Assembly: GCF_030013595.1 (NCBI RefSeq)
Contig: NZ_CP122768.1
Length of the DNA stretch: 64,000 bases
Reading direction: 5' to 3' (one strand)
Origin: Escherichia coli
Lineage (GTDB): Bacteria; Pseudomonadota; Gammaproteobacteria; Enterobacterales; Enterobacteriaceae
Below, piece after piece: positions 1 to 37,000 of this stretch. Made by a program: the position numbers and the translations under genes. Numbering within the stretch: position 1 is the first letter of the stretch; every line of letters begins with the position of its first letter. The notes under the pieces were generated by a model. That model did no database searches, had not been told where the DNA came from, and saw only the letters and a list, made by a program, of their open reading frames with translations.

Positions 1-615
1 CGGCGCAAGCTGGCGCGAGAACAGGCCCATATAGGCGCACTCTTCCAGCACTACGGCATTATGCACCGCATCGGCGGCGTTTTTACCCCAGGCGAACGGG
101 CCGTGAGAATGCACCAGTACCGCCGGGATTTGCGCCGGACTCCTGCCGCGTTCTTCGAAAGTTTCAATGATCACTTCGCCGGTCTGGTATTCATACTCGC
201 CGTTGATCTCCTCTGCGGTCATCAGGCGCGTGCAGGGGATGGCACCATAGAAATAATCAGCGTGCGTGGTGCCCCAGGCGGGGAGATCCAGCCCGGCCTG
301 CGACCAGATGGTGGCGTGGCGCGAGTGGGTATGCACAATGCCACCGATTTCGGCATAGCGACGGTAAAGCGCCAGATGCGTTGGCGTATCGGACGAGGGC
401 TTTTTGCTACCTTCCACCACCTTGCCGCTGGCTATCTCAACCACCACCATATCGTCGGCGGTCATCACGTCGTACTCGACGCCGGAAGGTTTGATTACCA
501 TCCATTGCCGCGTTTCGTCTACCGCGCTGACATTGCCCCAGGTGAACGTCACCAGATGGTGAGCGGGAAGTGCCAGATTTGCCGCCAGCACGTCGGCTTT
601 CAGTTGCTCTAACAT
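1..615 (-). CDS. sgbE: L-ribulose-5-phosphate 4-epimerase, 5' portion only (gene runs off the window start)
   Basis: Minus-strand translation from the ATG near 615 reads [30 protein letters not shown]...; the listed + ORF 61..612 is its antisense shadow. Confidence 0.85.
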
Positions 616-1469
616 ATAAATCCAGCCTCCTGCATACGCGCTTCAATCCAGCGCCGCGCCTGAATAATCTCCAGCACCGGCTCTTTGGCTTTTTCGGTCC
701 ACATCTCAATCAGGAAAGAACCGCGATAGTTCAGTTCATGCAGCGTTTTGAAGATGCCAACGAAATCGACGCAGCCTTCGCCAAACGGCACATCACGGAA
801 CTGTCCGGGACTTTGCCCGGTGACTGGCAGGGTGTCTTTCAGATGGATTGCGGCAATACGGTCAATGCCCAGTTTCAGTTCGGCGGGAACATCATTGCCC
901 CAGGCGCTGAGGTTGCCGACGTCCGGGTAGACGGTGAACCACGGCGAGGCGAGCATCTCGTCCCACTTTTTCCATTTGCTGATGGAGTTCATAAACGCGG
1001 TATCCATAATCTCCACCGCCAGCATTACTTGTGATGCCGCCGCCTGTTCGACCGCCCACGCCAGCCCTTCAGCAAAACGTTGCTGGGTGCCTTCGTCGTG
1101 GTCTTCGTAATAGACGTCGTAACCTGCCAGTTGAATGGTGCGAATGCCGAGATCGCGCGCCAGGCGAATCGCTTTACTCATGATTTCCCGCGCCCGTTCG
1201 CGCACCGCCTTGTCCCGGCTGCCAAAGGGAAAGCGACGATGTGCGGACAGGCACATTGACGGAATGGCAACACCCGTTTCGATCATCGCGGCAACCAGCG
1301 AAGTCCTTTGTGTGGCGCTCCAGTCAAGGCGTGACAGACGCTCGTCAGTTTCATCCACCGACATTTCGACAAAATCAAAGCCGCAGCTTTTTGCCAGCAC
1401 CAGCCGCTCCGGCCAGGAGAGATCTTTCGCCAGCGCTTTTTCATAAATGCCTAACGGATGATTACGCAC
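609..1469 (-). CDS. sgbU: L-xylulose-5-phosphate 3-epimerase
   Basis: ORF 609..1559 trimmed to the GTG giving [13 protein letters not shown]... (286 aa), preceded by a GGGGAGG ribosome-binding site. Confidence 0.9.
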
Positions 1470-2124
1470 GCGCGCCTCCCCAGATGGCATCAATTTGCGC
1501 ATGGAAATCGCCAGCCACCTGCGCCGGATTTGCTGCGCCTGCCAGCGCCCGCCCGGCAATAAACGCTTTCACGCGGATATCTTTAAACAGCGGCAGGTCA
1601 GCAGGGGTAATCCCGCCGGTAATGGAAAGCTCAAGGCCGATATCGGAAAGTGCCTTCATGCGTGCCAGATCGGCTTCGCCCCACTGTTGCCCGCTGGCCT
1701 GTGCATCACGACCACGATGATAAATGGCCTGCCGCACGCCAATACGATGCCAGTCGCGGGCGTCGTCCAGCGTCCAGTTACCGAACAACTCGATCTGAAT
1801 TTCACCACCGCAGCGTTGCGCCATCGCGTGGCCTTTTTCCACCGTCGCGAGCGGCGCGGCGCAGATGATGGTCATCCAGTTGGCACCCGCGCCAAACGCC
1901 TGTTGCGCGAGCGTTTCACCAGCGTCGGCGACCTTCCAGTCAGCAACGATGATTTTGTCCGGGCATTGTTCGCGTAAGGCTTTCACCGCGCCAAGCCCTT
2001 CGTTTAAACAGAGAATGGTGCCTGCTTCGACGATATCGACGCTGTTTTTTAACAGCGTAACGTCGCGCTGTGCGTCTTCAAGTGATGAGTGGTCGAGGGC
2101 CAGTTGCAGAAGTGGTCGGCTCAT
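1462..2124 (-). CDS. sgbH: 3-keto-L-gulonate-6-phosphate decarboxylase
   Basis: 220-aa [22 protein letters not shown]..., OMP-decarboxylase-like; overlaps sgbU start by 8 nt. Confidence 0.9.
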
Positions 2125-3617
2125 AATGTGTGCTCCTTGATGCGGGCGTGAAAGCCCTGAAGTGCGGCAATGAGATGCTGATAGCGTTGGTATTTTTGTT
2201 GGTAAAGCTGATGGGCGGTCATATCCGGCAGCAGGGTGCGTACCGGGTGCTGTAAATCACGTTGGGCTTCGCTGAAATCGCGATAAACTCCGGTGCCGAC
2301 GCGGGCGGCAAGTGCCGCACCAAAGCAGCCGGTTTCTTCCACCTGCGGCAGCTCGATACGCAGACCGCTGACGTCCGCCAGCATTTGCATCCAGACATCG
2401 GAATGCGCCGGGCCGCCAGTGACGCGCAGGGTGTGCACATCAGTAAAACGTTCGCGCATCCGGTTGAGATGGGTCATATGGCTGAACACCACGCCTTCAT
2501 AAATGGCCTGCAACAGGTGTGCGCGGGTGTGAATGGCCTGCATCCCGTAGAAACCGCTGGTCATCTCGAGTCCGGCGTTGCTGCCGTACAGGAACGGCAG
2601 GAAAAAGAGATCGCCCCCGGCCTTTGGCAAGCTGGCAACGGCCTGGTTAATCTCATCAAACGAGATTTCTCCCCACTGTGCGGTAAACCATTCGAGGTTG
2701 CCGGAAGAGGTGGGGCTGGCTTCGTGAACGATAAATTGACCATCGTTAACGTAGCGACCATAGACATACGGATGCGCTTCACCGTCACGTAAACCACGGG
2801 TTATGCCGCTGGTCACCGCCCAGGTGCCCATCACCGCATTAAGGGTAAATTCGTCTTCGATCCCGGCACAGAGTGCGGTGGAAACCACATCAAACAGGCC
2901 GCCGACAATGGGCGTACCCGCTTTCAGACCGGTCAGTGCGGCTGTCTGAGCGGTGATTTCCCCGCAGATTTCGGCAGATCCGACAACAGGCGGCAGGGCG
3001 TGGTTGATTTCAGCGATCCCCAGCCAGTCGGTGAGACACGGGTCATATTTCCCGCGACTCATGTTGTAGAGGTTGGACTCGGAAATATTGCTCTCTTCAC
3101 AGCCTTTGACGCCGGTTAAACACCAGCGCAGATAGTCGTGCGTCATCATTACGCAGCCAATTTGCGCGTAGCGTTCCGGTTCGTGCTCTTTCAGCCAGCG
3201 TAACAGCGACACCGGATGCCCGGTCCACAAGGTTTGTCGGGTCAGCGGGTAGAGTTTTTCCGGGATGCCATCTTCCTGCCAGCGACGAACGATTTCCATC
3301 GCCCGGCGATCCGAGGACAAAATGGCGTTACCGAGCGGCTTGTCGTTTTTATCCAGCAAAAACAAGCCCTTTCCCTGTGCGGAGATACCGACACCGACAA
3401 TTTGTTCCCCGCTAACACCAGAATGAGTAAGCAGGGCGCGAATGACAGCCATGCAGCATTGCCACAGTTCTGCCATATCGCGCTCTGCCCAGCCTGGCTG
3501 CGGGCTTAATGCGCACAGCGGCAGGCGCTGCACGCCTGCCTCCCGGCCTTCGCGGTCATACAGCCCGGCTTTCAGCCAGCTACCGCCACAATCTAACCCC
3601 AGCCAGTATTGCGTCAT
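2121..3617 (-). CDS. lyxK: L-xylulose kinase (FGGY family)
   Basis: 498-aa ORF MTQYWLGLDCGGSWLKAGLYD...; 4-nt overlap with sgbH. Confidence 0.9.
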   Translation of the reverse strand: MTQYWLGLDCGGSWLKAGLYDREGREAGVQRLPLCALSPQPGWAERDMAELWQCCMAVIRALLTHSGVSGEQIVGVGISAQGKGLFLLDKNDKPLGNAILSSDRRAMEIVRRWQEDGIPEKLYPLTRQTLWTGHPVSLLRWLKEHEPERYAQIGCVMMTHDYLRWCLTGVKGCEESNISESNLYNMSRGKYDPCLTDWLGIAEINHALPPVVGSAEICGEITAQTAALTGLKAGTPIVGGLFDVVSTALCAGIEDEFTLNAVMGTWAVTSGITRGLRDGEAHPYVYGRYVNDGQFIVHEASPTSSGNLEWFTAQWGEISFDEINQAVASLPKAGGDLFFLPFLYGSNAGLEMTSGFYGMQAIHTRAHLLQAIYEGVVFSHMTHLNRMRERFTDVHTLRVTGGPAHSDVWMQMLADVSGLRIELPQVEETGCFGAALAARVGTGVYRDFSEAQRDLQHPVRTLLPDMTAHQLYQQKYQRYQHLIAALQGFHARIKEHTL

Positions 3618-3620
3618 GGT

Positions 3621-4607
3621 TTATTGCACCTCATCCACGGCTTTCAGCAGATCAGCACCCTGCGGAACATCTTTAACAAACATGTCGCGAACCTGATTCC
3701 CCAGTGCGTCGCTAAAGGCTTTGCGGTCGAGATCGGTGATGACTTCCACGCCCGCTTCTTTCATGCCGTCGATGATTTTTTGCTGATCTTCGGCAACCAG
3801 TTTGCGCTGGTAGTTACCCGCTTCCTGCGCAGATGAGATCAGCGCCTGCTGGAACTCCGGGGTTAAGCCGTCAAACTTCGCTTTGTTGATCACCACCAGA
3901 AGCGGGGAATAGGCGTGATGGGTCAGAGAAAGGTATTTCTGCACTTCGAAAAATTTTGCTGACCAGACGACGTTGATAGGGTGTTCCTGAGCGTCGATAG
4001 TGCGGGTTTCCAGCCCGGTATAGACTTCGGCAAACGGCATCGGAATCGGGTTAGCGCCAAAGACTTTGAATGCGGCGATATTCATCGGGCTATTGTTGGT
4101 GCGAATTTTCAGCCCTTTCAGGTCGGCGGGGGTTTTAACCGGTGCGCGCGAGTTGGTGACATCGCGCCAGCCGTTTTCCCAGTAAGCGAGCACTTTCAGA
4201 CCTTTACCTTCAAGGGAGACTTTCAGGTCATCACCGACTTTGCCGTCGAGCGTTTTATGCGCGTGGGCGGTATCGCGGAACAGGAAAGGGACATCAAGCA
4301 GGTTCATCACAGGTGACAATCCGGCAAAGTTATTCGAGCCGGACATTTCCATATCGATGGTGCCGCCACGCACGCCGCTGATCATCGCCTGCGCATTACC
4401 GAGGGTGCTATCCGGAAACAATTTTAATTTCAGTTCGCCTTTGGTTTTTTCCTGTAATAATTCATTGAATTTTTTCGCCGCAATATGTTGCGAGTCGGTT
4501 TGTGATGTTTCATAACCGAAACGTAAAGATTGTGCCGCCAGAGAAGATGTGCTGAACGCCGCCACTCCGGCAATTAATAATGCGTAGGTTACAGAGCGTA
4601 ATTTCAT
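3621..4607 (-). CDS. yiaO: TRAP transporter periplasmic substrate-binding protein (2,3-diketo-L-gulonate)
   Basis: 328-aa ORF with signal peptide MKLRSVTYALLIAGVAAFSTSSLA. Confidence 0.9.
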   Translation of the reverse strand: MKLRSVTYALLIAGVAAFSTSSLAAQSLRFGYETSQTDSQHIAAKKFNELLQEKTKGELKLKLFPDSTLGNAQAMISGVRGGTIDMEMSGSNNFAGLSPVMNLLDVPFLFRDTAHAHKTLDGKVGDDLKVSLEGKGLKVLAYWENGWRDVTNSRAPVKTPADLKGLKIRTNNSPMNIAAFKVFGANPIPMPFAEVYTGLETRTIDAQEHPINVVWSAKFFEVQKYLSLTHHAYSPLLVVINKAKFDGLTPEFQQALISSAQEAGNYQRKLVAEDQQKIIDGMKEAGVEVITDLDRKAFSDALGNQVRDMFVKDVPQGADLLKAVDEVQ

Positions 4608-4619
4608 GATATTTTCCTT

Positions 4620-5897
4620 TTAGTTAATCCATTTCAGAGGAGCGGTGATGAGTTCCGGAATAAATATAAAAACAACCAATAGTGAATATAAAACCAGTAC
4701 GTAAGGGAAAACGCCTCTTACCGCATCATCAAATTTCAGTTTCGCCACACCGGAAATAACATTAAGGACATTGCCGATGGGCGGTGTAATTAATCCTATG
4801 GAACAGTTAATGATAAACATGACACCGAAATAAATCGGATCGATTCCTGCCTCTTTAACTAAAGGCATTAATACCGGGGTAAGAATTAATACCGTCGGCG
4901 TTAAATCCATGACCATGCCGACAATCAGGATAGCCACCATAATGACGATAAACAGCAGACGCGGTGAATCGACCAGCGGTTGCAGTAAATCAGAAACCAT
5001 CATCGGCAGTTCAGCAATGGTGATCAGCCAGGCGGAAACTTGTGCCGAGGCCACCAGAAACATCACCACTGAGGTCGTTTTCGCTGCGCCAATGAGCACA
5101 TGCCAAAGTGTGGCGAAGGTCATTTCACGGTAAATAACTGTGGCGACAAACAGCGCATAGAAAGCAGCAACGGCCCCGGCTTCGGTAGGGGTAAACAGAC
5201 CGGAGCGAAACCCGCCAATAATGATGACTGGAAGAAACAGCGCCCAGATACCGGAGACAAAAGAGTGCCAGATTTCCTGCATCGTTGCTTTTTGCTGGCG
5301 GGGTAAATTAAGGCGACTGGCCTGCCACCACCAGGTAAGCATCAGCGTTGCGCCCATCATCATGCCAGGGGCAATGCCCGCCATAAACAGCTTACTGATG
5401 GATAATCCGCTGGAAACGCCGAAAATAATAAACGGAATGGAAGGGGGAATAATTGGCGCGATAATCCCGCCAGAGGCAATCAACCCCGCAGCCCGGTTGA
5501 CCGGGTAGTTAGCGCTGCGCATCATCGGCACCAGTAACGCGGCAACGGCGGCGGTATCTGCAACAGCAGAACCAGAAAGGCTCGCCATAATCATTGCCGC
5601 CAGCACGCCGACGTAGCCCAGCCCGCCAGGTTTATGCCCCACCAGTTTCATCGGCAGGTCAACAATGCGTTTCGACAAGCCGCCCGCATTCATGATTTCA
5701 CCCGCCAGCACAAAGAACGGTATCGCCAGCAGGGAGAAACTGTCGGCTCCGTTCACCAGCGTTTGTGCCATGATCTGGACATCAAACATCTCCAGCCAGA
5801 ACATTAACGCTGCGCCACATAACAACAGTGCCCAGGCAATAGGCAAACCGATAGCAATACCACCCAACAGACAGCCCAGAAAAATCAGCACAGCCAT
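4620..5897 (-). CDS. yiaN: TRAP transporter large permease subunit
   Basis: 425-aa highly hydrophobic ORF, DctM-like. Confidence 0.9.
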   Translation of the reverse strand: MAVLIFLGCLLGGIAIGLPIAWALLLCGAALMFWLEMFDVQIMAQTLVNGADSFSLLAIPFFVLAGEIMNAGGLSKRIVDLPMKLVGHKPGGLGYVGVLAAMIMASLSGSAVADTAAVAALLVPMMRSANYPVNRAAGLIASGGIIAPIIPPSIPFIIFGVSSGLSISKLFMAGIAPGMMMGATLMLTWWWQASRLNLPRQQKATMQEIWHSFVSGIWALFLPVIIIGGFRSGLFTPTEAGAVAAFYALFVATVIYREMTFATLWHVLIGAAKTTSVVMFLVASAQVSAWLITIAELPMMVSDLLQPLVDSPRLLFIVIMVAILIVGMVMDLTPTVLILTPVLMPLVKEAGIDPIYFGVMFIINCSIGLITPPIGNVLNVISGVAKLKFDDAVRGVFPYVLVLYSLLVVFIFIPELITAPLKWIN

Positions 5898-5899
5898 GA

Positions 5900-6373
5900 T
5901 TAAGCTCCTTGCGGTGGCGACGTTAGAGAATTGCTACGCGTGATGAGTTGATATAAATGACGCAGTTCAAAGAATGCGATAACGAGGCTGGTGGGCAGAC
6001 AAGCGGCATACATCAGGCCGATGGGCAAACCGAGGATCGGTGAATAATCGCTCCAGTCCTGAATTGTTTTTAGCGTTGCGCCCCAGGCCAGTGCGCCACA
6101 AATAAATAAGATTAAGGAATGGGTAACCAGAGCGACTCGTCGCTGCCATGCGGGGGAGAGTTTCTCCACCAGAAAGGTGACCTGAACGTGGGCGTTATCC
6201 ATAAAAGCCACAATCGCGCCAATAAATGTTAACCAGACAAATAAATAACGTGACAATTCATCTACAGATAAAATGCTTGTCTTAAAACCATATCTTAAAA
6301 TAATGTTTATAAACACAATACAGGAAAGTACGGCGAGATTAATCGCCAGTATTGCTTCAAGTATTTTTTTCAT
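5900..6373 (-). CDS. yiaM: TRAP transporter small permease subunit
   Basis: 157-aa membrane ORF immediately upstream of yiaN. Confidence 0.85.
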
Positions 6374-6490
6374 AGCTATTCCTTGAGGCTATGTTTGACA
6401 TAATTCAAGTTGCATGTGCAGCAACCTAAATTATTAATATAGTTAGAGCAATAACATTACCCAGGCGTTCTGGCGTAGACGATTATTCGA

Positions 6491-6961
<471 letters not shown>

Positions 6962-6969
6962 TTATCTCC

Positions 6970-7968
6970 TCATAACGCCTGGATTTTGGCCCACACGCTG
7001 TCATCAACGGTGATGCCGTTACGGCGGTTTTCGGCCAGCAGGGTAGTAAATTCGTGGCCGGGTAAGCGGATGGCCTGGTTTTCGTCAGCGCGTTCAGCGG
7101 TAGTAACGTAATCCATGATGCGTTGCAGCTTGGCATCGCGGGTGGGGCCGTCGATCAATTTATCCACTTCGATGGCGATAAAGATTTGCGAAACGCCGTA
7201 TTCGTCGCTGTTGTCCTGGGTGACTTCGGCAACCGATGCGCCGTCGGAAAGGAGAGTGGCGATCATATCCAGCACAATCGACATGCCAGAACCTTTCCAG
7301 TAGCCCATCGGTAAAATGCGGCGATTCTTCTCGATAACGCCAGGTTCTTTGGTCAAATTGCCCTCATCATCAAAGCCACCATCGACCGGGAGCTGACGGC
7401 CTGCCAGACGGTTAACTTCTAACATGCCGTAAGAGAACATCGACATCGACATATCGACCATGGTGATTGGGGTAGAAGGAATGGCGACGATCAGCGGGTT
7501 GGTGCCGATGCGACACTCTTTTGCGCCCCACGGCGGCATTACGGCGATGGAGTTGGTCCAGCAAATGCCAATATAGCCTTTTTCCGCCGCCTGCCAGCCG
7601 TAGCTGCCGCCGCGCATCCAGTGGTTGGCATTACGTAGTGCCACCAGACCAATACCATGATCGGCAGCCAGTTCGATGGCGCGATCCATCATCTTTTTCG
7701 CTGTCAGGTTACCGATCGAACGCTGGGCGTCCCACTGTTCAATTGCGCCGAGGCTGGTTATACGTTTGGGTTGGGCATCAGGAATGATATCGCCGTTTTC
7801 CAGTTGTTGAATGAAACGAGGGAAACGGTTGACGCCGTGAGAATAAACGCCGGATTCGGTGGTGCGGGCGAACATCTCGGCACAGGCATCAGCCGTTTCG
7901 CTGTCAACGCCGCGTGAAATTAAGACTCGATTAAAGGCTGCTTTTAACTGCTCAAATGTCACTTTCAT
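6970..7968 (-). CDS. yiaK: 2,3-diketo-L-gulonate reductase
   Basis: 332-aa [29 protein letters not shown]...; first gene of the operon. Confidence 0.9.
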
Positions 7969-8168
7969 CCCTGGCTTCCTTGTTTTTTTGATCGCTTTTT
8001 TGGCTTAAAATTTCAATATACGAAATCTGATTTCAAATATATCGATCGCTTTTTAACAAAGCAATCTGATTGATGAATTTCAAAAAACTTAAAAATCAAT
8101 TGGTTATAAATTATCTGTCGAGATCGTGAACTACGACACACTTTGCGCTACCATCAGGACGCGACAAA
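7969..8168. promoter_or_regulatory. yiaK / yiaJ divergent control region with AT-rich direct repeats
   Basis: 200-bp AT-rich spacer between divergent starts; repeated ATTTCAA(A)TATA-like motifs near 8009-8042 and 8076-8087. Confidence 0.4.
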
Positions 8169-9017
8169 ATGGGGAAAGAAGTGATGGGAAAAAAAGAGAA
8201 CGAGATGGCGCAGGAAAAAGAGCGTCCAGCCGGAAGCCAGAGTCTGTTTCGCGGGTTGATGCTGATTGAGATTTTGAGCAATTATCCAAACGGTTGTCCG
8301 TTGGCGCATCTTTCGGAACTGGCTGGTTTAAATAAGAGTACCGTCCATCGCTTATTGCAGGGATTACAGTCCTGCGGCTATGTGACCACCGCGCCCGCCG
8401 CAGGGAGTTACCGCCTGACTACCAAATTTATTGCCGTCGGGCAGAAGGCGCTGTCTTCGCTGAATATCATTCATATCGCCGCTCCGCATCTTGAGGCACT
8501 GAACATCGCCACTGGTGAAACCATTAACTTTTCCAGCCGCGAAGACGATCACGCTATTTTGATTTATAAGCTGGAACCCACAACCGGGATGCTGCGAACC
8601 CGTGCCTATATAGGCCAGCATATGCCGCTCTACTGTTCCGCAATGGGCAAGATCTACATGGCGTTTGGTCACCCGGACTATGTGAAGTCATACTGGAAAA
8701 GCCATCAGCATGAGATCCAGCCGTTAACCCGCAATACCATTACCGAGCTGCCCGCGATGTTCGACGAACTGACGCACATTCGTGAAAGTGGAGCGGCGAT
8801 GGACAGAGAAGAAAACGAACTCGGCGTCTCCTGTATTGCTGTTCCGGTGTTTGATATTCATGGGCGGGTGCCGTACGCCGTGTCGATTTCTCTTTCGACA
8901 TCACGTCTGAAACAGGTGGGGGAGAAAAATCTCCTGAAACCACTGCGTGAAACCGCGCAGGCTATTTCTAATGAACTGGGATTTACTGTCAGGGACGACC
9001 AGGGCGCGATCACATAA
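8169..9017 (+). CDS. yiaJ: IclR-family transcriptional repressor of the yiaK-S operon
   Basis: 282-aa ORF with N-terminal HTH (LSELAGLNKSTVHRLLQGL). Confidence 0.9.
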   Translation: MGKEVMGKKENEMAQEKERPAGSQSLFRGLMLIEILSNYPNGCPLAHLSELAGLNKSTVHRLLQGLQSCGYVTTAPAAGSYRLTTKFIAVGQKALSSLNIIHIAAPHLEALNIATGETINFSSREDDHAILIYKLEPTTGMLRTRAYIGQHMPLYCSAMGKIYMAFGHPDYVKSYWKSHQHEIQPLTRNTITELPAMFDELTHIRESGAAMDREENELGVSCIAVPVFDIHGRVPYAVSISLSTSRLKQVGEKNLLKPLRETAQAISNELGFTVRDDQGAIT

Positions 9018-9118
9018 CGCTTTGGACAAGTGCCAAAACTTTAACATTTCCTTCGTTGGATCAAAGCAGTAGAGACGCGCTCTCTGGCACTCTGCTGTTT
9101 TAGTGCAAAGGAGTGATC

Positions 9119-9592
9119 ATGAACCGGTTTATTATTGCGGATGCGACGAAATGTATCGGTTGCCGTACCTGTGAAGTGGCTTGCGCAGTGTCGCATCAGG
9201 AGAATCAGGATTGCGCTGCGTTGTCACCAGACGAGTTTATTTCCCGTATTCGTGTCATTAAAGACCACACATGGACCACGGCTGTAGCCTGCCATCAGTG
9301 TGAAGATGCACCGTGCGCGAATGTCTGCCCTGTTGACGCGATAAGCCGCGAACATGGGCATATTTTCGTTGAACAATCACGTTGCATTGGCTGTAAAAGC
9401 TGTATGCTGGCTTGCCCGTTTGGTGCGATGGAGGTCGTTTCTTCGCGCAAAAAGGCGAGGGCGATTAAGTGCGATCTGTGCTGGCATCGGGCGACGGGAC
9501 CGGCCTGTGTTGAAGCCTGCCCGACAAAGGCGTTGCAGTGCATGGATGTCGAGAAAGTGCAGCGGCATCGGCTACGGCAGCAGCCTGTTTGA
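9119..9592 (+). CDS. ysaA: 4Fe-4S ferredoxin-type protein
   Basis: ORF 9113..9592 trimmed to MNRFIIADATKCIGCRTCEVAC...; several CxxCxxC clusters. Confidence 0.85.
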   Translation: MNRFIIADATKCIGCRTCEVACAVSHQENQDCAALSPDEFISRIRVIKDHTWTTAVACHQCEDAPCANVCPVDAISREHGHIFVEQSRCIGCKSCMLACPFGAMEVVSSRKKARAIKCDLCWHRATGPACVEACPTKALQCMDVEKVQRHRLRQQPV

Positions 9593-9708
9593 AACGTTTT
9601 TCCGGCGTTTCTCAACGCAGGGATAGTGCGCTTTGTTTATGCCGGATGCGGCTAAAATGAACTGCACCCCAAATGTTGGACATAATCTGACATCTGAAGG
9701 TGCAGTTT

Positions 9709-10230
9709 ATGAAACATTCATTTGAAGTAAAACTTGCCGCTGTAAATCATTACCTGGCTGGTCATGCAGGCATCATTTCTACGGCAAAACTCTTTCAACT
9801 TTCTCACACCAGCCTCTCACACTGGATTAATCTTTTTCTTCTTCACGGTCCTCGTGCACTGGATTGCAGACACAAGCGTAGCTATTCTCCTGAAGATAAA
9901 CTTTGCGTGGTTCTTTATGCTCTCGGGCATTCTGAGTCTCTACCCCGGGTAGCTGCCCGGTTTAACATTCCCAGCCACAACACGGTTAAAAACTGGATAA
10001 AAGGCTACCGCAAATCTGGTAATGAGGCCTTTATCAGGCGCAGGAAGGAGAAAAGCATGACCCGTTCTGATGATACCCATGAAAACGAGGCAAACATGAC
10101 GCCGGAAGAGATGAAGAATGAGCTGCGTTATCTTCGCGCAGAAAATGCATATCTGAAAGCCATGCAGGAGCATCTCCTGGAAAAAAAGCGCCAGGAGCTG
10201 GAGAAAAAACGAAAGTCATCCGGAGCCTGA
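9709..10230 (+). CDS. insJ: IS150 OrfA (HTH DNA-binding protein)
   Basis: 173-aa ORF MKHSFEVKLAAVNHYLAGHAGIISTAKLF... ending in a leucine-zipper-like region. Confidence 0.85.
   Translation: MKHSFEVKLAAVNHYLAGHAGIISTAKLFQLSHTSLSHWINLFLLHGPRALDCRHKRSYSPEDKLCVVLYALGHSESLPRVAARFNIPSHNTVKNWIKGYRKSGNEAFIRRRKEKSMTRSDDTHENEANMTPEEMKNELRYLRAENAYLKAMQEHLLEKKRQELEKKRKSSGA
10183..10189 (+). promoter_or_regulatory. Programmed -1 ribosomal frameshift heptamer A AAA AAG
   Basis: Slippery A AAA AAG motif in the orfA frame (LEKKRQ) just before the orfA stop; the -1 frame continues into orfB. Position +/- 2 nt. Confidence 0.6.
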
Positions 10231-10334
10231 GGTGCGGACACTGCCAGTCTGACCTGTTAAAGGCTGCAGGGCTGGCCAGAAGCACGCTGTACTACCAGCT
10301 GTCACTGCAGAAGGCTAAGGACAAGTATGCTGAT

Positions 10335-11089
<755 letters not shown>

Positions 11090-11172
11090 AAACGCCTTAT
11101 CCGGCCTACAAATTCTACCAAATTCAATATATTGCAGAAATCATGTAGGCCTGATAAGCGTAGCGCATCAGG
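11090..11172. repeat. REP elements (BIME-like); the first REP is split by the IS insertion
   Basis: GCCGGATGCGGC (9640-9652) on the left flank and CGCCTTATCCGGCCTAC (11093-11109) on the right rejoin into a consensus-length REP; a second REP GTAGGCCTGATAAGCGTAGCGCATCAGGC lies at about 11143-11171. Confidence 0.6.
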
Positions 11173-11178
11173 CAATTT

Positions 11179-12432
11179 TTAGTGACTTTCAGCCCAGGCT
11201 CTTTCTATCTCTTCTGCCAGAATCTTCACTCCCGCCTCAATTTTCTCCGGCTCCGGCACGTAGTTCATGCGCATACATTGATGTGTATGTGGCCACGGTT
11301 TATCCAGCCCTGGGAAGAAGTTGTGCCCCGGCACCATCAGCACGCCCCGTGCTTTCAGGCGCTGGTAGAGCTGCTCGGTCGTAATTGGCAAATCCTTAAA
11401 CCATAGCCAGAGGAAAATGGCTCCTTCCGGTTTATGAATCAGGCAGCGATCTTCCGGTAAATAGCGGCGAATGATGGCGATAGTTTCCTGAACACGCTGG
11501 TAGTAAAACGGTTTGATGACTGTTTCAGACAGGCGCAGCAGATCGTTACGCTTAATCATTTCACTCATCATCGCCGGACCAATACCGCCAGGTGCCAGGC
11601 TGATAATGCCGTTCATATTGGTGATGGCGGTGATGATTTTTTCATTGGCGATGATAATGCCGCAGCGGGAGCCTGGTAGACCCAGCTTGGAAAGACTCAT
11701 GCACAGCACGATATTCGGATTCCATAGCGGGCGCGCTTCGCTGAAGATGATACCCGGGAACGGGACGCCATAAGCGTTATCAATCACCAGCGGAATGCCG
11801 TGTTGATTCGCCAGCGCGTCAAGCTTCAGCAACTCTTCGTCAGTAATCACATTGCCTGTTGGATTCGTCGGCCGGGAGACGCAAATCATCCCGGTTTCTT
11901 CGCCAATATGCAGATGCTCAAAATCGACGTGGTATTTAAACTGGCCTTCCGGCAGCAGTTCAATATTCGGACGCGCAGAGACAAACAGATCTTCTTCCAG
12001 TCCGGCGTCAGCGTAGCCAATGTATTCCGGTGCCAGCGGGAACAGCACTTTTTTGACCCGACCATCGGCACGGCGTCCGGCAAACAGATTAAATAAGTAG
12101 AAAAACGCGCTCTGGCTGCCGTTTGTTAGTGCAATATTCTGTGGTTCGATATCCCAACCCAACTTCTCGCGCAGCATTCCGGCAAGCAGTGTGAGTAGCT
12201 CCGTTTTCCCCTGTGGACCGTCGTAATTGCACAGTGCATCAGTCGCTTTGCCACTTTCCAGCATGTCGGTCAGTAGCGTCTGGAAGTAGTCCTGCATTTC
12301 CGGGATCTGCGCTGGATTACCGCCGCCGAGCATAATCGCGCCAGGCGTGCGTAAACCGTCGTTCAGATCTTCCATCAGCAGCGTAATGCCGGAGTGGCGG
12401 GTAAATTTGTCACCAAAAAGGGAGAATGTCAT
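11179..12432 (-). CDS. avtA: Valine-pyruvate aminotransferase (transaminase C)
   Basis: ORF 11179..12537 trimmed to MTFSLFGDKFTRHSGITLLMEDL... (417 aa). Confidence 0.9.
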   Translation of the reverse strand: MTFSLFGDKFTRHSGITLLMEDLNDGLRTPGAIMLGGGNPAQIPEMQDYFQTLLTDMLESGKATDALCNYDGPQGKTELLTLLAGMLREKLGWDIEPQNIALTNGSQSAFFYLFNLFAGRRADGRVKKVLFPLAPEYIGYADAGLEEDLFVSARPNIELLPEGQFKYHVDFEHLHIGEETGMICVSRPTNPTGNVITDEELLKLDALANQHGIPLVIDNAYGVPFPGIIFSEARPLWNPNIVLCMSLSKLGLPGSRCGIIIANEKIITAITNMNGIISLAPGGIGPAMMSEMIKRNDLLRLSETVIKPFYYQRVQETIAIIRRYLPEDRCLIHKPEGAIFLWLWFKDLPITTEQLYQRLKARGVLMVPGHNFFPGLDKPWPHTHQCMRMNYVPEPEKIEAGVKILAEEIERAWAESH

Positions 12433-12565
12433 AGCGGGATATCTGTCGAACTCTGTAGCAAGGAAGGTAACAATAACGCTACATTTGCTGGGGTGCAAAT
12501 CGCTCTGTTGAAGAGGGAGCGGTGCTTTATCCTGCAACGCTGATTAGAGCTGACATTTTATCCTG

Positions 12566-12604
12566 GTTGGCGGCTTCCCGAGGTACTGACGAACGGGAAG
12601 CCGG
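12566..12604 (-). terminator. Hairpin downstream of malS
   Basis: Inverted repeat CTTCCCG...CGGGAAG just after the malS stop. Confidence 0.45.
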
Positions 12605-33445: not shown

Positions 33446-34105
33446 TTACAGCGGGCTTAAGGTAATTTCTACACGGCGGTTTTGCGCCTTACCTTCTGCG
33501 GTGCTGTTGCTGGCGATTGGGTTAGCCGGGCCAAGGCCCTGAGTACGGATGCGGCTGGCGTCCACGCCCTGGGTGATCAACGCGCTGGCAACGGAATCCG
33601 CACGCTGCTGGGAGAGACGCATGTTCAGGTCGTGACCACCCGTGCTGTCGGTATAACCAATCACGTTAACCGCCGTTTTCGGATACTCTTTCAGCACCAT
33701 TGCCACGCCGGTCAGGGTGTTAGCGCCTGCCGGTTTCAGGGTCGCGCTGCTGCTGTCGAAGGTCACATTGTTCGGCATATTGAGGATAATGTTATCCCCG
33801 CTGCGGGTTACGCTAACACCAGTGCCGCGCATTTTGTCACGTAGCTTCGCTTCCTGCACATCCATGTAATAACCCACGCCGCCGCCCAGAGCTGCGCCTG
33901 CTGCTGCGCCAATCAGCGCGCCTTTACCGCGATCTTTCTTCGAAGAAGAGAGCGCACCAATACCCGCGCCCACGAGAGAGCCCAGACCTGCGCCAATAGC
34001 AGATTTACCTGCTTCGCGTTCGCCGGTGTAAGGGTTAGTTGTGCAGCCAGATACCGCCAGAGCGCCACTCACTACTGCGGCAATAAGATAAACACGTTTC
34101 TTCAT
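33446..34105 (-). CDS. yiaD: OmpA-family outer-membrane lipoprotein
   Basis: 219-aa ORF with lipobox (LAVSGCTT), Gly-rich region and C-terminal OmpA-like domain. Confidence 0.9.
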   Translation of the reverse strand: MKKRVYLIAAVVSGALAVSGCTTNPYTGEREAGKSAIGAGLGSLVGAGIGALSSSKKDRGKGALIGAAAGAALGGGVGYYMDVQEAKLRDKMRGTGVSVTRSGDNIILNMPNNVTFDSSSATLKPAGANTLTGVAMVLKEYPKTAVNVIGYTDSTGGHDLNMRLSQQRADSVASALITQGVDASRIRTQGLGPANPIASNSTAEGKAQNRRVEITLSPL

Positions 34106-34257
34106 TGTTAATCCTTAATAACCTTTTTATTCTTTGCCACGGGTTCCGTGGCGGGAGATTATGCCGCGTGAACATGAAGATTATTCCTGGGAATACTCGG
34201 AAATTTGTAAGTAATATTTAACTGCTCAATACATCTAACCTTTCAGGAGTCTTCGGT

Positions 34258-36591
34258 TTGGCCAACTCATCCTCACGATATTCCGTTCTGACTGCCGCCC
34301 ACTGGGGGCCCATGCTGGTTGAAACCGACGGCGAAACCGTGCTTAGCTCGCGTGGCGCGTTAGCCACAGGAATGGAAAACTCCTTGCAGAGCGCGGTTCG
34401 CGACCAGGTTCACAGCAATACGCGGGTACGATTTCCAATGGTGCGCAAAGGTTTTCTCGCGTCACCGGAAAACCCGCAAGGCATTCGCGGGCAGGATGAA
34501 TTTGTTCGTGTGAGTTGGGATGAGGCGCTGGAGCTTATTCACCAACAACATAAACGTATTCGTGAGGCTTATGGTCCGGCATCGATTTTTGCTGGTTCCT
34601 ACGGCTGGCGTTCAAACGGCGTGCTGCATAAGGCCTCGACATTATTACAACGCTATATGGCGCTGGCAGGCGGTTATACCGGGCATCTGGGGGATTATTC
34701 GACCGGTGCAGCACAGGCGATCATGCCGTATGTCGTGGGGGGCAGCGAAGTTTATCAACAGCAAACCAGTTGGCCGTTGGTGCTGGAACATAGCGATGTC
34801 GTGGTGCTGTGGAGTGCTAACCCACTCAATACGCTGAAAATTGCGTGGAATGCATCTGATGAGCAGGGGCTTTCTTACTTTTCTGCACTGCGTGACAGTG
34901 GGAAAAAGCTGATCTGCATTGATCCAATGCGATCGGAAACCGTTGAGTTCTTTGGCGATAAAATGGAGTGGGTGGCACCGCACATGGGCACCGATGTTGC
35001 GCTGATGCTGGGGATCGCCTATACGCTGGTGGAAAATGGTTGGCACGACGAAGCGTTTCTGGCGCGTTGCACCACAGGTTATGCCGTCTTCGCCTCTTAT
35101 TTGCTGGGCGAGAGTGACGGAATAGCCAAAACCGCCGAATGGGCGGCAGGGATTTGTGGTGTTGGCGCAGCGAAAATCCGCGAACTGGCGGCTCTTTTCC
35201 ATCAAAACACCACCATGCTGATGGCTGGCTGGGGAATGCAGCGTCAACAGTTTGGTGAGCAAAAACATTGGATGATCGTCACGCTGGCGGCAATGTTGGG
35301 GCAAATCGGCACACCCGGCGGCGGTTTTGGTCTTTCTTATCATTTTGCCAATGGTGGTAACCCCACGCGGCGTTCTGCGGTGCTCTCTTCCATGCAGGGC
35401 AGCTTGCCTGGCGGCACCGATGCGGTAGATAAAATCCCTGTTGCCCGCATTGTTGAAGCACTGGAAAACCCTGGTGGCGCATATCAACACAACGGTATGA
35501 ACCGACATTTCCCGGATATTCGTTTTATCTGGTGGGCGGGCGGTGCCAACTTTACTCATCATCAGGATACCAATCGCCTGATCCGTGCCTGGCAAAAGCC
35601 GGAGCTGGTGGTGATCTCTGAATGCTTCTGGACGGCGGCGGCGAAACACGCGGATATCGTTCTGCCTGCGACCACTTCGTTTGAGCGTAATGATCTCACC
35701 ATGACCGGCGATTACAGCAATCAGCATCTGGTGCCGATGAAACAAGTGGTGCCGCCACGTTATGAAGCGCGTAATGATTTTGATGTCTTTGCCGAGTTGA
35801 GTGAACGTTGGGAGAAGGGCGGCTATGCGCGGTTTACGGAAGGAAAAAGTGAGCTGCAATGGCTGGAAACGTTTTATAACGTTGCCCGGCAGCGCGGGGC
35901 AAGCCAGCAGGTTGAATTGCCGCCATTTGCTGAGTTCTGGCAAGCCAACCAGTTAATTGAGATGCCGGAAAACCCGGACAGCGAGCGGTTTATTCGCTTC
36001 GCCGATTTTCGCCGCGATCCGCAGGCGCATCCATTAAAAACCGCCAGCGGCAAGATTGAAATCTTCTCGCAGCGTATTGCCGATTACGCTTATCCGGATT
36101 GCCCTGGGCATCCAATGTGGCTGGAGCCGGACGAATGGCAGGGCAATGCCGAACCGGAACAGTTGCAGGTACTTTCTGCTCATCCGGCACATCGTCTGCA
36201 CAGCCAGCTGAATTACAGTTCTCTGCGCGAATTGTACGCGGTGGCAAATCGTGAGCCTGTCACCATTCATCCTGACGATGCCCAGGCGCGCGGCATACAA
36301 GATGGCGATATTGTTCGGTTGTGGAACGCACGCGGGCAAATTCTTGCCGGAGCGGTCATTAGCGAGGGAATTAAACCTGGCGTGATTTGTATTCATGAAG
36401 GGGCTTGGCCGGATCTGGATTTAACCGCTGACGGTATTTGTAAAAACGGCGCGGTGAACGTTCTGACCAAAGATCTCCCCAGCTCGCGGCTGGGGAATGG
36501 CTGTGCGGGTAATACGGCGCTGGCATGGCTGGAAAAATACAACGGTCCGGAACTGACACTTACAGCGTTTGAACCACCGGCCAGCTCATAA
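34258..36591 (+). CDS. bisC: Biotin sulfoxide reductase (molybdopterin oxidoreductase)
   Basis: 777-aa [28 protein letters not shown]...; apparent TTG start. Confidence 0.9.
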
Positions 36592-37000
36592 TCCAGGTGG
36601 GTAGTTGGGTTTCATCCTGCCATGCGCAGTCGACAATGTGAAAACCCTGCGCATGGTAGAAATCTATCGCCGGTTGATTTTTTTGATAAACCTCCAGCAT
36701 CAGATGGGGATGGCGCTGCTGCACATACTGCATCAGCGCCTTACCAATACCGCGTCTGACGGCCTTCGGTGCGACAAACATTGCAGCCAGAAATCGGCCT
36801 TCCATAATGCTGACAAAACCGAGAAACTTACCGTCTTCTTCCCAGACCCAGTTTTGCGCGTTGGCAAGATAGGCATCCCGCACCAGCGGAATGCAATCAC
36901 GCCAGTAATTCGCTTTTATAAAGGGATGCCCCCAGGTTGTACTTTCCAGCCACAGTTCGAGGATCGCGGGGAGTTCTGAACGTTGCGCTTCCCGAATCAT
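36560..37000 (-). CDS. yiaC: GNAT-family N-acetyltransferase
   Basis: 146-aa [30 protein letters not shown]... Confidence 0.85.

Follow-up and report, generated by a model that had tools for sequence, protein, structure and literature searches.

The closest described counterpart of the bisC locus considered here is that of Escherichia coli K-12 (b3551, NP_418007.3), which encodes a biotin sulfoxide/free methionine-S-sulfoxide reductase. The periplasmic DMSO/TMAO reductases (DorA, PDB 1dms and 1eu1; TorA, 1tmo; and 7l5i) have the fold family and the HWG motif in common with BisC, but they carry a Tat signal of ~30–45 residues and begin at an ATG located far upstream, as seen in Vibrio, Haemophilus and Rhodobacter loci. 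For sgbU, the related protein is its paralog UlaE (PDB 3cqh), with which it shares an N-terminal motif. For the insertion sequence IS1397, the comparison is with the −1 frameshifting elements of the IS3 family (IS150, IS911 and IS3), in which orfA and orfB overlap and orfB lies in the −1 frame. TTG starts are found in ~3–4% of E. coli genes. The AUU start of infC is a non-canonical codon that is discriminated against by IF3, for autoregulation. UUG, like AUG and GUG, is a canonical start codon and initiates at 10–100% of the level of AUG, and non-ATG starts were reported to make up ~17% of those in E. coli (bioRxiv 10.1101/063800); the infC AUU start is cited in the same work.

The window analyzed is a 64,000-nt stretch of an E. 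coli chromosome that extends from the sgb/yia operon to bcs. It is 99.9% identical to the pig isolate HCP5S3_I2 and 95–99% identical to most E. coli. Of the 47 annotated CDS starts that we mapped on the window, all but two are ATG (45); the exceptions are the GTG of sgbU and the TTG of bisC. The first-pass annotation had described non-ATG initiation in several genes, and this holds for bisC and sgbU, but for only these 2 of the 47 annotated starts. Compared with the ~17% expectation the window has fewer non-ATG starts (binomial P of two or fewer among 47 = 0.009). The non-ATG starts of bisC and sgbU are already known and present in the reference annotations; they are correct but ordinary. Overall, the original observation was confirmed in part, and its interpretation was supported in part. 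Two ordinary Shine-Dalgarno (SD)-led initiations at canonical alternative codons, together with one programmed ribosomal frameshift, very probably account for all that was described. The codons, SD motifs, annotations, domain boundaries and conservation that enter this explanation are observed. For automatic re-calling of starts, the practical consequence is to retain the TTG of bisC as well as the GTG of sgbU, and to model IS1397 as a frameshifted orfAB, without seeking a start for orfB.

The bisC CDS (positions 34258–36591, + strand) encodes a 777-aa biotin sulfoxide reductase, and sequence, annotation and orthologs identify the TTG at 34258–34260 (+) as its initiation codon. An SD motif, CAGGAG (34244–34249, +), is separated from the TTG by an 8-nt spacer and forms a duplex with the 16S rRNA 3′ end at −6.9 kcal/mol. 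An in-frame TAA (34219–34221, +) closes the reading frame 13 codons before the TTG, and between this stop and the ATG at codon 19 (34312) the TTG is the sole ATG, GTG or TTG in frame. It is the annotated bisC start in RefSeq (PGAP, strain HCP5S3_I2), in the curated K-12 genome (b3551, 777 aa) and in five further E. coli genomes that we sampled. The K-12 leader, SD and TTG are identical to those of the window, the CDS is also 2334 nt and the domain architecture is the same; the start site is thus without difference, in a different strain. We searched the literature for direct evidence, at the protein level or from ribosome profiling, of where BisC begins or is initiated, and found none. Further upstream, a promoter-like sequence (TTGCCA-17-GATTAT; 34134–34162, +) was noted as a consensus match only, and the leader alignment places both of its hexamer regions within blocks that are conserved across genera. 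A riboswitch or leader RNA at bisC (e.g., a Moco riboswitch) was rejected, given that an Rfam search of positions 33950–34450 with permissive thresholds returned just two chance-level matches (E > 2).

The N-terminal region of the protein fits initiation at the TTG. Three Pfam domains were detected in BisC, all above the curated cut-offs: Molybdopterin_N (residues 12–52), Molybdopterin (56–517) and Molydop_binding (636–741). The Molybdopterin_N match spans the full 41-position profile and is preceded by just 11 residues, with no Tat signal peptide, whereas the loci of the periplasmic relatives have 40–100 extra upstream codons. With these three domains and no Tat signal, BisC is by its sequence a member of the DMSO reductase family, of the cytoplasmic BisC type. 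Its alignment to solved DMSO/TMAO reductases begins at residues 6–10. Against chains in the mature form, residue 9 of BisC pairs with residue 7 of 1dms, and its residue 10 with residue 8 of 1eu1. BisC, which uses TTG, begins about where the mature chains of the periplasmic enzymes begin. The alignments place its predicted N-terminus within ~2 residues of the mature N-terminus of the periplasmic DMSO reductases, and BisC would be in effect the signal-less form of these proteins.

The first-pass annotation allowed that a downstream in-frame ATG with a better ribosome-binding site could be the real start. For bisC, pairing energy alone favors such a codon, the ATG at codon 19 (34312–34314, +), and spacing and orthologs are against it. 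The GGGGG that precedes this ATG pairs with the anti-SD at −7.8 kcal/mol, compared with −6.9 kcal/mol for the TTG site. However, just 3 nt separate the end of the G-run from the ATG, and the run corresponds to invariant Trp-Gly codons. Among 54 orthologous loci, codon 19 is ATG in 38 and encodes Ile, Val or Leu in 16, and on this ortholog codon identity we rejected it as the main start. Residues 12–18 (LTAAHWGP, alignment columns 12–19) are invariant in all 47 bisC sequences compared, and lie both in the Pfam N-terminal domain and in the region aligned to solved structures; a start at codon 19 would delete this conserved strand. The ATG at codon 39 (34372–34374, +) was also rejected as a start. 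It is ATG in 1 of the 54 loci (the window itself), being confined to E. coli, has an SD pairing of −1.7 kcal/mol and is inside Molybdopterin_N.

A 759-aa BisC that starts at codon 19, with the TTG forming part of an upstream leader, has some history in addition to the preferred start codon and the strong G-run pairing. The 18 nt before this ATG were used as the bisC 5′ UTR in a 2012 study, and the annotation at that time evidently began there (PMC3310771). In the same study, this 18-mer was among the “C-rich RBSs” that were inefficient in E. coli in vivo, and the gsk-derived C-rich RBS alone was singled out as more than twofold above background (PMC3310771). The current K-12 and PGAP annotations both use the TTG. 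Along with the variable codon 19, the poor placement of the G-run and the loss of invariant residues, these points leave almost no likelihood for a start at codon 19. The earlier annotation misled at least one experimental study, in which coding sequence served as the “bisC 5′ UTR” (PMC3310771).

We also considered dual initiation in E. coli, in which the TTG would yield the full-length protein and the ATG at codon 19 a minor, N-terminally truncated isoform. The G-run and the true SD have similar anti-SD energies, and E. coli tables from initiation profiling commonly list in-frame starts internal to genes. The accessible part of the INRI-seq supplement, however, does not mention bisC in its text, nor does it include bisC in its table of alternative translation initiation sites (TISs). 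Moreover, a 3-nt spacing is poor, the ATG is not conserved and the truncated BisC would lose the conserved strand. We thus consider dual initiation improbable, if somewhat less so than a start at codon 19 alone. With the TTG as the start of bisC, the 30S subunit would be positioned on the mRNA by CAGGAG, 8 nt 5′ of the UUG at 34258, and initiator fMet-tRNA would read this UUG. As for the actual N-terminal residues, we infer that the protein starts Met-Ala-Asn, and initiation at this codon would produce a 777-residue cytoplasmic molybdoenzyme.

The GTG start of sgbU, also claimed in the first-pass annotation, is upheld by annotation, by a strong SD and by the edge of the region conserved with UlaE. 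The sgbU CDS (609–1469, − strand; 286 aa) has its GTG at 1467–1469 (−), and this codon is annotated as the start in both RefSeq and K-12 (b3582). The SD, GGGGAGG (1475–1481, −), lies 5 nt upstream and pairs at −11.3 kcal/mol, the best of all start candidates in the sgbU frame. The first ATG downstream of the GTG is codon 36. SgbU matches the Pfam AP_endonuc_2 TIM barrel over residues 25–277, and the UlaE crystal structure (3cqh) aligns from SgbU residue 3. The stop codon of sgbH (TAA, 1462–1464, −) lies within GTGCGTAA, and sgbH and sgbU overlap by 8 nt, in a coupling geometry; K-12 has the same GTG and the same overlap. Translation of sgbU would begin at GUG 1469, with GGGGAGG sitting inside the end of sgbH. 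As the GUG overlaps the sgbH stop (GUGCGUAA) in a geometry typical of translational coupling, the two genes are probably coupled.

It had been stated that the longest in-frame ORFs matching the known N-termini of bisC and sgbU begin with these TTG and GTG codons. The bisC TTG does open its ORF, but the longest ORF in the sgbU frame opens at a TTG at 1559 and includes ATGs at 1502 and 1490, 10 and 6 codons before the GTG. It could be argued that sgbU starts upstream, inside sgbH, with ATG 1502 or, in the strain of the window, ATG 1490 as its first codon. ATG 1502 is shared by the window and K-12 and is preceded by GGTGG (−5.9 kcal/mol). On the other hand, ATG 1490 is ACG in K-12, the SD of the GTG is by far the best, both reference annotations pick the GTG, and UlaE homology is found only from residue 3 after it. 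All five substitutions that separate K-12 from the window over the 60 nt preceding the GTG are synonymous for sgbH and non-synonymous in the sgbU frame. This stretch evolves as sgbH coding sequence, as judged by its substitution pattern, and an upstream start is very improbable. K-12 differs from the window in having a further GTG in the sgbU frame, 6 nt before the annotated start, where the window has GCG. An initiation peak seen in vitro was attributed to this K-12 GTG, as an alternative TIS (PMC9825163 Table S3). For sgbU in the window, the start remains the GTG at 1467–1469.

The third case, orfB of an insertion sequence, had been misclassified as an example of non-ATG initiation. The element is IS1397 of the IS3 family (9658–11089, + strand; 1432 bp), bounded by the terminal inverted repeats TGAACTGCACCCCAAA and TGAACTGAACCCCAAAA. 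The ATG of orfA, and hence of the OrfAB fusion, is at 9709–9711 (+). The orfB reading frame (10122–11057, +) is in the −1 frame relative to orfA: orfA codons start at positions 1 mod 3 and orfB codons at positions 0 mod 3. OrfB was said to have no ATG at all, but its frame contains seven in-frame ATGs, the first at 10455 (codon 112); it is merely the first 71 codons that have no ATG, GTG or TTG. A slippery heptamer, A AAA AAG (10182–10188, +), occurs in the orfA zero frame as the predicted −1 frameshift site, 40 nt before the orfA stop and within the orfA/orfB overlap. Joining the two frames at the heptamer gives 449 aa, the length of the RefSeq join 9709..11057, which is annotated “programmed frameshift.” Pfam detected HTH_28 and HTH_Tnp_1 in OrfA and HTH_21, rve (DDE) and rve_2 in OrfB.

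IS1397 resembles the other IS3-family systems in several features: its frames overlap, it carries the heptamer A AAA AAG and TG…CA inverted repeats, and its ORFs encode HTH and DDE (rve) domains. It differs from them in that the downstream stimulatory structure has no statistical support in this copy: the hairpin predicted 4 nt downstream of the heptamer has z = −1.28 relative to shuffled sequence, which is not significant. A distinguishing property of IS1397 is its specificity for REP/BIME targets (PMC1525189), and this copy shows it. Ribosomes that initiate at the orfA AUG (9709) would slip −1 on A AAA AAG, with an efficiency that we infer, to make the 449-aa OrfAB transposase. OrfB would not be initiated independently, and needs no start codon of its own because ribosomes would slip into it from orfA. 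A separate OrfB might in addition be translated from an internal GTG at 10335, which is the first canonical start in the orfB frame, falls where the HTH_21 match begins and has an upstream AAGGA motif (−5.7 kcal/mol). This SD-like motif is, however, 12 nt upstream of the GTG, and RefSeq models the frameshifted fusion only. A separate OrfB is therefore unlikely, though it is the most plausible of the alternative starts that we considered, and the frameshifted OrfAB is the preferred product.

The one feature of these starts that stands out is the conservation of the bisC TTG across species. The ortholog set was obtained by a DNA-pattern scan of genome contigs and comprises 54 loci in Enterobacteriaceae, representing at least 14 genera. 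At the start position, 53 of the 54 have TTG, one has TTA and none has ATG or GTG. The CAGGAG hexamer is kept in 48 of the 54, with a GGAG-to-start distance of 6–10 nt. Unlike the start codon, Leu11 within the gene is encoded by all six Leu codons among the same loci. For 82 four-fold sites, a neighbor-joining tree of 47 bisC sequences gives a mean of 12.0 parsimony changes, and these sites are saturated. They have a mean of 5.7 purine/pyrimidine changes and only two of the 82 have none, while position 1 of the start codon has zero such changes. The conservation of the bisC TTG is far beyond chance.

Within E. coli, a 41-mer with the TTG matched 5,080 of 5,426 complete genomes, and at least 5,080 therefore keep the TTG, as the 41-mer was designed so that every 28-nt seed spans this codon. 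Versions of the 41-mer with ATG, GTG or TTA had no match in the complete E. coli genomes for the haplotypes queried. About 340 genomes have haplotypes that break every 28-nt seed and fall outside the 41-mer count; the variant-haplotype genomes that we sampled all carry the TTG.

Genome-wide, selection favors start-codon switches to AUG (PMC5622118). At bisC, AUG or GUG never occurs in the orthologs of at least 14 genera, nor in at least 5,080 genomes of E. coli, and a near-consensus SD is always paired with the UUG. On this basis, we tentatively raise the possibility that the UUG is actively maintained as a weak start, not merely tolerated, through selection for a low BisC set-point. With TTG at the start of ~3–4% of E. 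coli genes, a few invariant-TTG cases like bisC would be expected by chance. The bisC UUG is, like the AUU of infC, a conserved sub-optimal start codon, but unlike that AUU it is canonical, and any regulatory role of the bisC codon would be hypothetical. Low BisC synthesis could match a limited supply of the bis-MGD cofactor or avoid the build-up of apo-enzyme. If the weak start is selected, a TTG-to-ATG change would be deleterious. The family-wide invariance of the bisC TTG is the one mildly notable point, and offers a modest case in which possible selection for a sub-optimal start codon can be tested.

The bisC gene of the window opens with TTG (34258-34260, + strand), as the first-pass annotation had proposed, and this start is borne out by the reading frame, PGAP annotation and the curated K-12 record. 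The TTG begins an ORF of 777 codons running to 36591. The frame is closed upstream by an in-frame TAA (34219, +), and from this stop to codon 19 (34312) the TTG is the sole ATG, GTG or TTG. Counting the TTG as codon 1, the next in-frame candidates are ATG19 (34312), GTG28 and ATG39. A Shine-Dalgarno (SD) sequence, CAGGAG (34244-34249, +), lies 8 nt before the TTG. In the pig isolate HCP5S3_I2, which by megablast is 99.9% identical to the window over 33900-36700 and 100% identical over 1-12600, the PGAP bisC CDS begins at the same base; PGAP also uses this TTG in five more genomes, sampled for divergent leader haplotypes. The curated K-12 gene (b3551, NP_418007.3, 2334 nt) has a leader and TTG identical to those of the window. 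The TTG start is already in the reference annotation.

Orthologs were collected from one genome per species with a degenerate DNA pattern encoding (F/Y)PMVRKGF, BisC residues 59-66. This motif is 3' of every candidate start, which keeps the scan neutral with respect to the N-terminus. The matches included 54 signal-less BisC-type loci from Escherichia, Salmonella, Citrobacter, Klebsiella, Raoultella, Enterobacter, Kosakonia, Kluyvera, Phytobacter, Pluralibacter, Pseudescherichia, Superficieibacter, Trabulsiella and Buttiauxella. The start-homologous codon (13-15 codons before the His of HWG) is TTG in 53 of the 54, TTA in one, and ATG or GTG in none. CAGGAG occurs upstream in 48/54 loci, with GGAG 6-10 nt from the start. 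Residues 2-10 vary freely and all six leucine codons are found at the internal Leu11; in the multiple alignment of the leader, the SD and the TTG stand out as isolated invariant islands. Codon 19 is ATG in only 38/54 loci (Ile, Val or Leu in the others, including Citrobacter and Salmonella), and codon 39 is ATG solely in the window E. coli. Given this variability neither downstream ATG can be the conserved start, and both were ruled out as such by codon identity in the 54 loci.

The protein was also compared with known domains and structures. The 41-position Pfam model Molybdopterin_N aligns full length to BisC residues 12-52, and alignments to DMSO and TMAO reductases of solved structure set in at residues 6-10. 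In the two chains whose entries represent mature proteins, residue 7 of 1dms corresponds to BisC residue 9 and residue 8 of 1eu1 to residue 10, so TTG-initiated BisC is almost co-terminal with the mature enzymes; its N-terminus nearly coincides with the one that signal cleavage leaves in the periplasmic reductases. Initiation at Met19 or Met39 would remove part of the conserved N-terminal domain, and these starts were rejected.

The real start might instead have been a downstream ATG with a better ribosome binding site. On pairing energy with the 16S anti-SD alone ATG19 is not worse, as its upstream GGGGG pairs at -7.8 kcal/mol versus -6.9 at the TTG site, but only 3 nt separate this G-run from the ATG, and the run simply represents the invariant Trp-Gly codons. 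In Barendt et al. (PMC3310771), the bisC-labelled sequence tested as a ribosome binding site is the K-12 sequence directly before ATG19. The supplementary oligo “E._coli_bisC_5'_UTR” carries GCCGCCCATTGGGGGCCC as the native bisC 5' UTR; this stretch is in fact coding and corresponds to codons 13-18 of the ORF that begins at the TTG. We infer that an older bisC annotation began at ATG19, and an outdated start was thus carried into a published experiment. The study singles out only a gsk-derived sequence as >2-fold above background, and the sequence before ATG19 would appear to be a poor ribosome binding site in vivo. Minor internal initiation at ATG19 in E. coli, favored by the pairing energy and disfavored by the placement of the G-run, seems very improbable.

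Several individual loci depart from the common arrangement. The sole TTA is in the E. coli SCPM-O-B-8794 draft (NZ_JAATUR010000010.1); it would abolish canonical initiation, leaving ATG19 as the next available start, and the ORF is otherwise open to the limit of the locus. With two haplotypes tested, the TTA start was found in no complete E. coli genome, and it reflects either loss of the start by mutation in this strain or an error in sequencing. In the river-water isolate E. coli KOr021 (NZ_CP091703.1) the SD is CAGGTG rather than CAGGAG (position homologous to 34248), by its sequence a weakened SD before an already weak start codon. Citrobacter amalonaticus AUH_CA_2023_1 has the usual GCAGGAG-N7-TTG, and its frame shifts ~35 codons in, indicating either a pseudogene or an assembly indel error. 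Klebsiella-type bisC leader and N-terminal sequences also occur on a 445-bp contig labelled Prolixibacteraceae bacterium JC049 and an 809-bp contig labelled Flammeovirga aprica, the latter identical to K. pneumoniae (L083) over the compared stretch (27 nt of leader and 21 codons). Both contigs probably represent contamination of Bacteroidota assemblies.

The divergent yiaD-bisC intergenic region contains a perfect inverted repeat, GCCACGG-GTT-CCGTGGC (34136-34152), that overlaps a promoter-like -35 hexamer. Its arms appear to co-vary across genera (GTCAC...GTGAC in Klebsiella/Raoultella, GCCTCG...CGAGAC in Superficieibacter). The region holds another palindrome, ATTCC-TG-GGAAT (34183-34194), which is kept as TTCC-N-GGAA. 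Both are possible regulator-binding sites or hairpins common to the two genes. In most genera, including Klebsiella, Raoultella, Kluyvera, Kosakonia, Pluralibacter, Enterobacter and Buttiauxella (e.g., loci L083, L052, L084, L017, L033 and L008), a CACCTGCA motif located 8-14 nt 5' of the SD is conserved; Escherichia, Salmonella and some Citrobacter lack it. The CCUG in this motif could base-pair with CAGG in the SD.

For sgbU, the proposed GTG start (1469-1467, minus strand) stands, being annotated in RefSeq and K-12 (b3582), and overlaps the sgbH stop within GTGCGTAA. It does not open the longest ORF, since the frame is open upstream to TTG 1559, with in-frame ATGs at 1502 and 1490. The SD GGGGAGG, 5 nt upstream of the GTG, is the best of all candidates (-11.3 kcal/mol). 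ATG 1490 is ACG in K-12. Over the 60 nt leading up to the GTG, K-12 and the window differ at five positions; every one of these changes is silent when read as sgbH and non-silent when read as sgbU, so this stretch evolves as sgbH only. SgbU aligns to the UlaE crystal structure from its residue 3 and enters the TIM-barrel domain at residue 25; downstream of the GTG, no ATG occurs before codon 36. An in vitro initiation map of K-12 places an alternative start at an in-frame GTG that precedes the annotated one by 6 nt (PMC9825163, Table S3). This extra GTG, two codons 5' of the start (K-12 3749226-3749228; GAGGTGCGCGTG), is GCG in the window strain (1470-1475 region, minus), and therefore the alternative start does not exist there.

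The third example, an insertion-sequence orfB without any ATG, is best explained by frameshifting, not non-ATG initiation. The element is IS1397 (IS3 family, 9658-11089), for which RefSeq gives a single joined CDS (9709..11057) noted as “programmed frameshift.” The start codon of orfA is the ATG at 9709, and the orfB frame, -1 relative to orfA, is open from 10122. Taken literally the claim fails, as this frame has seven in-frame ATGs; it holds in spirit for the 5' end, where no canonical start precedes GTG 10335 (codon 72) and no ATG occurs before 10455 (codon 112). A -1 slip at the heptamer A AAA AAG (10182-10188, in the orfA frame) would give a protein of 449 aa, as long as the RefSeq join implies, with HTH domains contributed by OrfA and HTH_21 and rve by OrfB. 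The hairpin predicted downstream of the heptamer was not significant. IS1397 lies within a REP/palindromic unit (GCCGGATGCGGCTAAAA, 9641-9657; AAACGCCTTATCCGGCCTAC, 11090-11109), with a 3-bp AAA repeat on each side, matching its reported REP/BIME target specificity (PMC1525189). K-12 has no IS at this position.

By megablast the window is E. coli chromosome, matched by 5,422 genomes, the majority at 95-99% identity. The RefSeq gene order of HCP5S3_I2 runs sgbE, sgbU, sgbH, lyxK, yiaO-K, yiaJ, ysaA, IS1397, avtA and onward through xyl, glyQS, cspA, yiaG, yiaF, ghrB, yiaD, bisC, yiaC and tag to dpp and bcs. Among 47 annotated starts mapped on the window, 45 are ATG, one GTG and one TTG. E. coli overall uses ATG for 83%, GTG for 14% and TTG for 3% of starts (10.1101/063800), so two non-ATG starts compare with ~8 expected (binomial P(<=2) = 0.009). 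If anything, non-ATG starts are under-represented, probably without biological significance. The core observation of the first-pass annotation thus stands, its interpretation holding for bisC and sgbU and failing for orfB. All of these start codons and the IS1397 frameshift are already in reference annotations, and the finding is of low interest overall.

The invariance of the bisC TTG was evaluated on a neighbour-joining tree of 47 sequences, using 82 four-fold degenerate sites in codons of invariant residues. These sites averaged 12.0 parsimony changes, none having zero; for purine/pyrimidine changes only, the kind needed to turn TTG into ATG or GTG, the mean was 5.7 per site, with zero in 2/82. 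The first base of the start codon had zero changes (empirical p ~0.02, Poisson p ~0.003). A 41-mer built so that all of its 28-nt seeds include the TTG matched 5,080 of 5,426 complete E. coli genomes, leaving out ~340 whose flank haplotypes escape it, and its ATG, GTG or TTA versions matched none. Genome-wide, selection favors AUG, selection on starts is weak, and stronger SDs tend to accompany non-AUG starts (Belinky et al., PMC5622118). bisC shares the strong SD, but the drift toward AUG is not seen. The pattern hints that the bisC TTG may be kept by selection for a weak start. As ~3-4% of genes use TTG, however, a few such cases should arise by chance alone, and selection is put forward only as a tentative reading.
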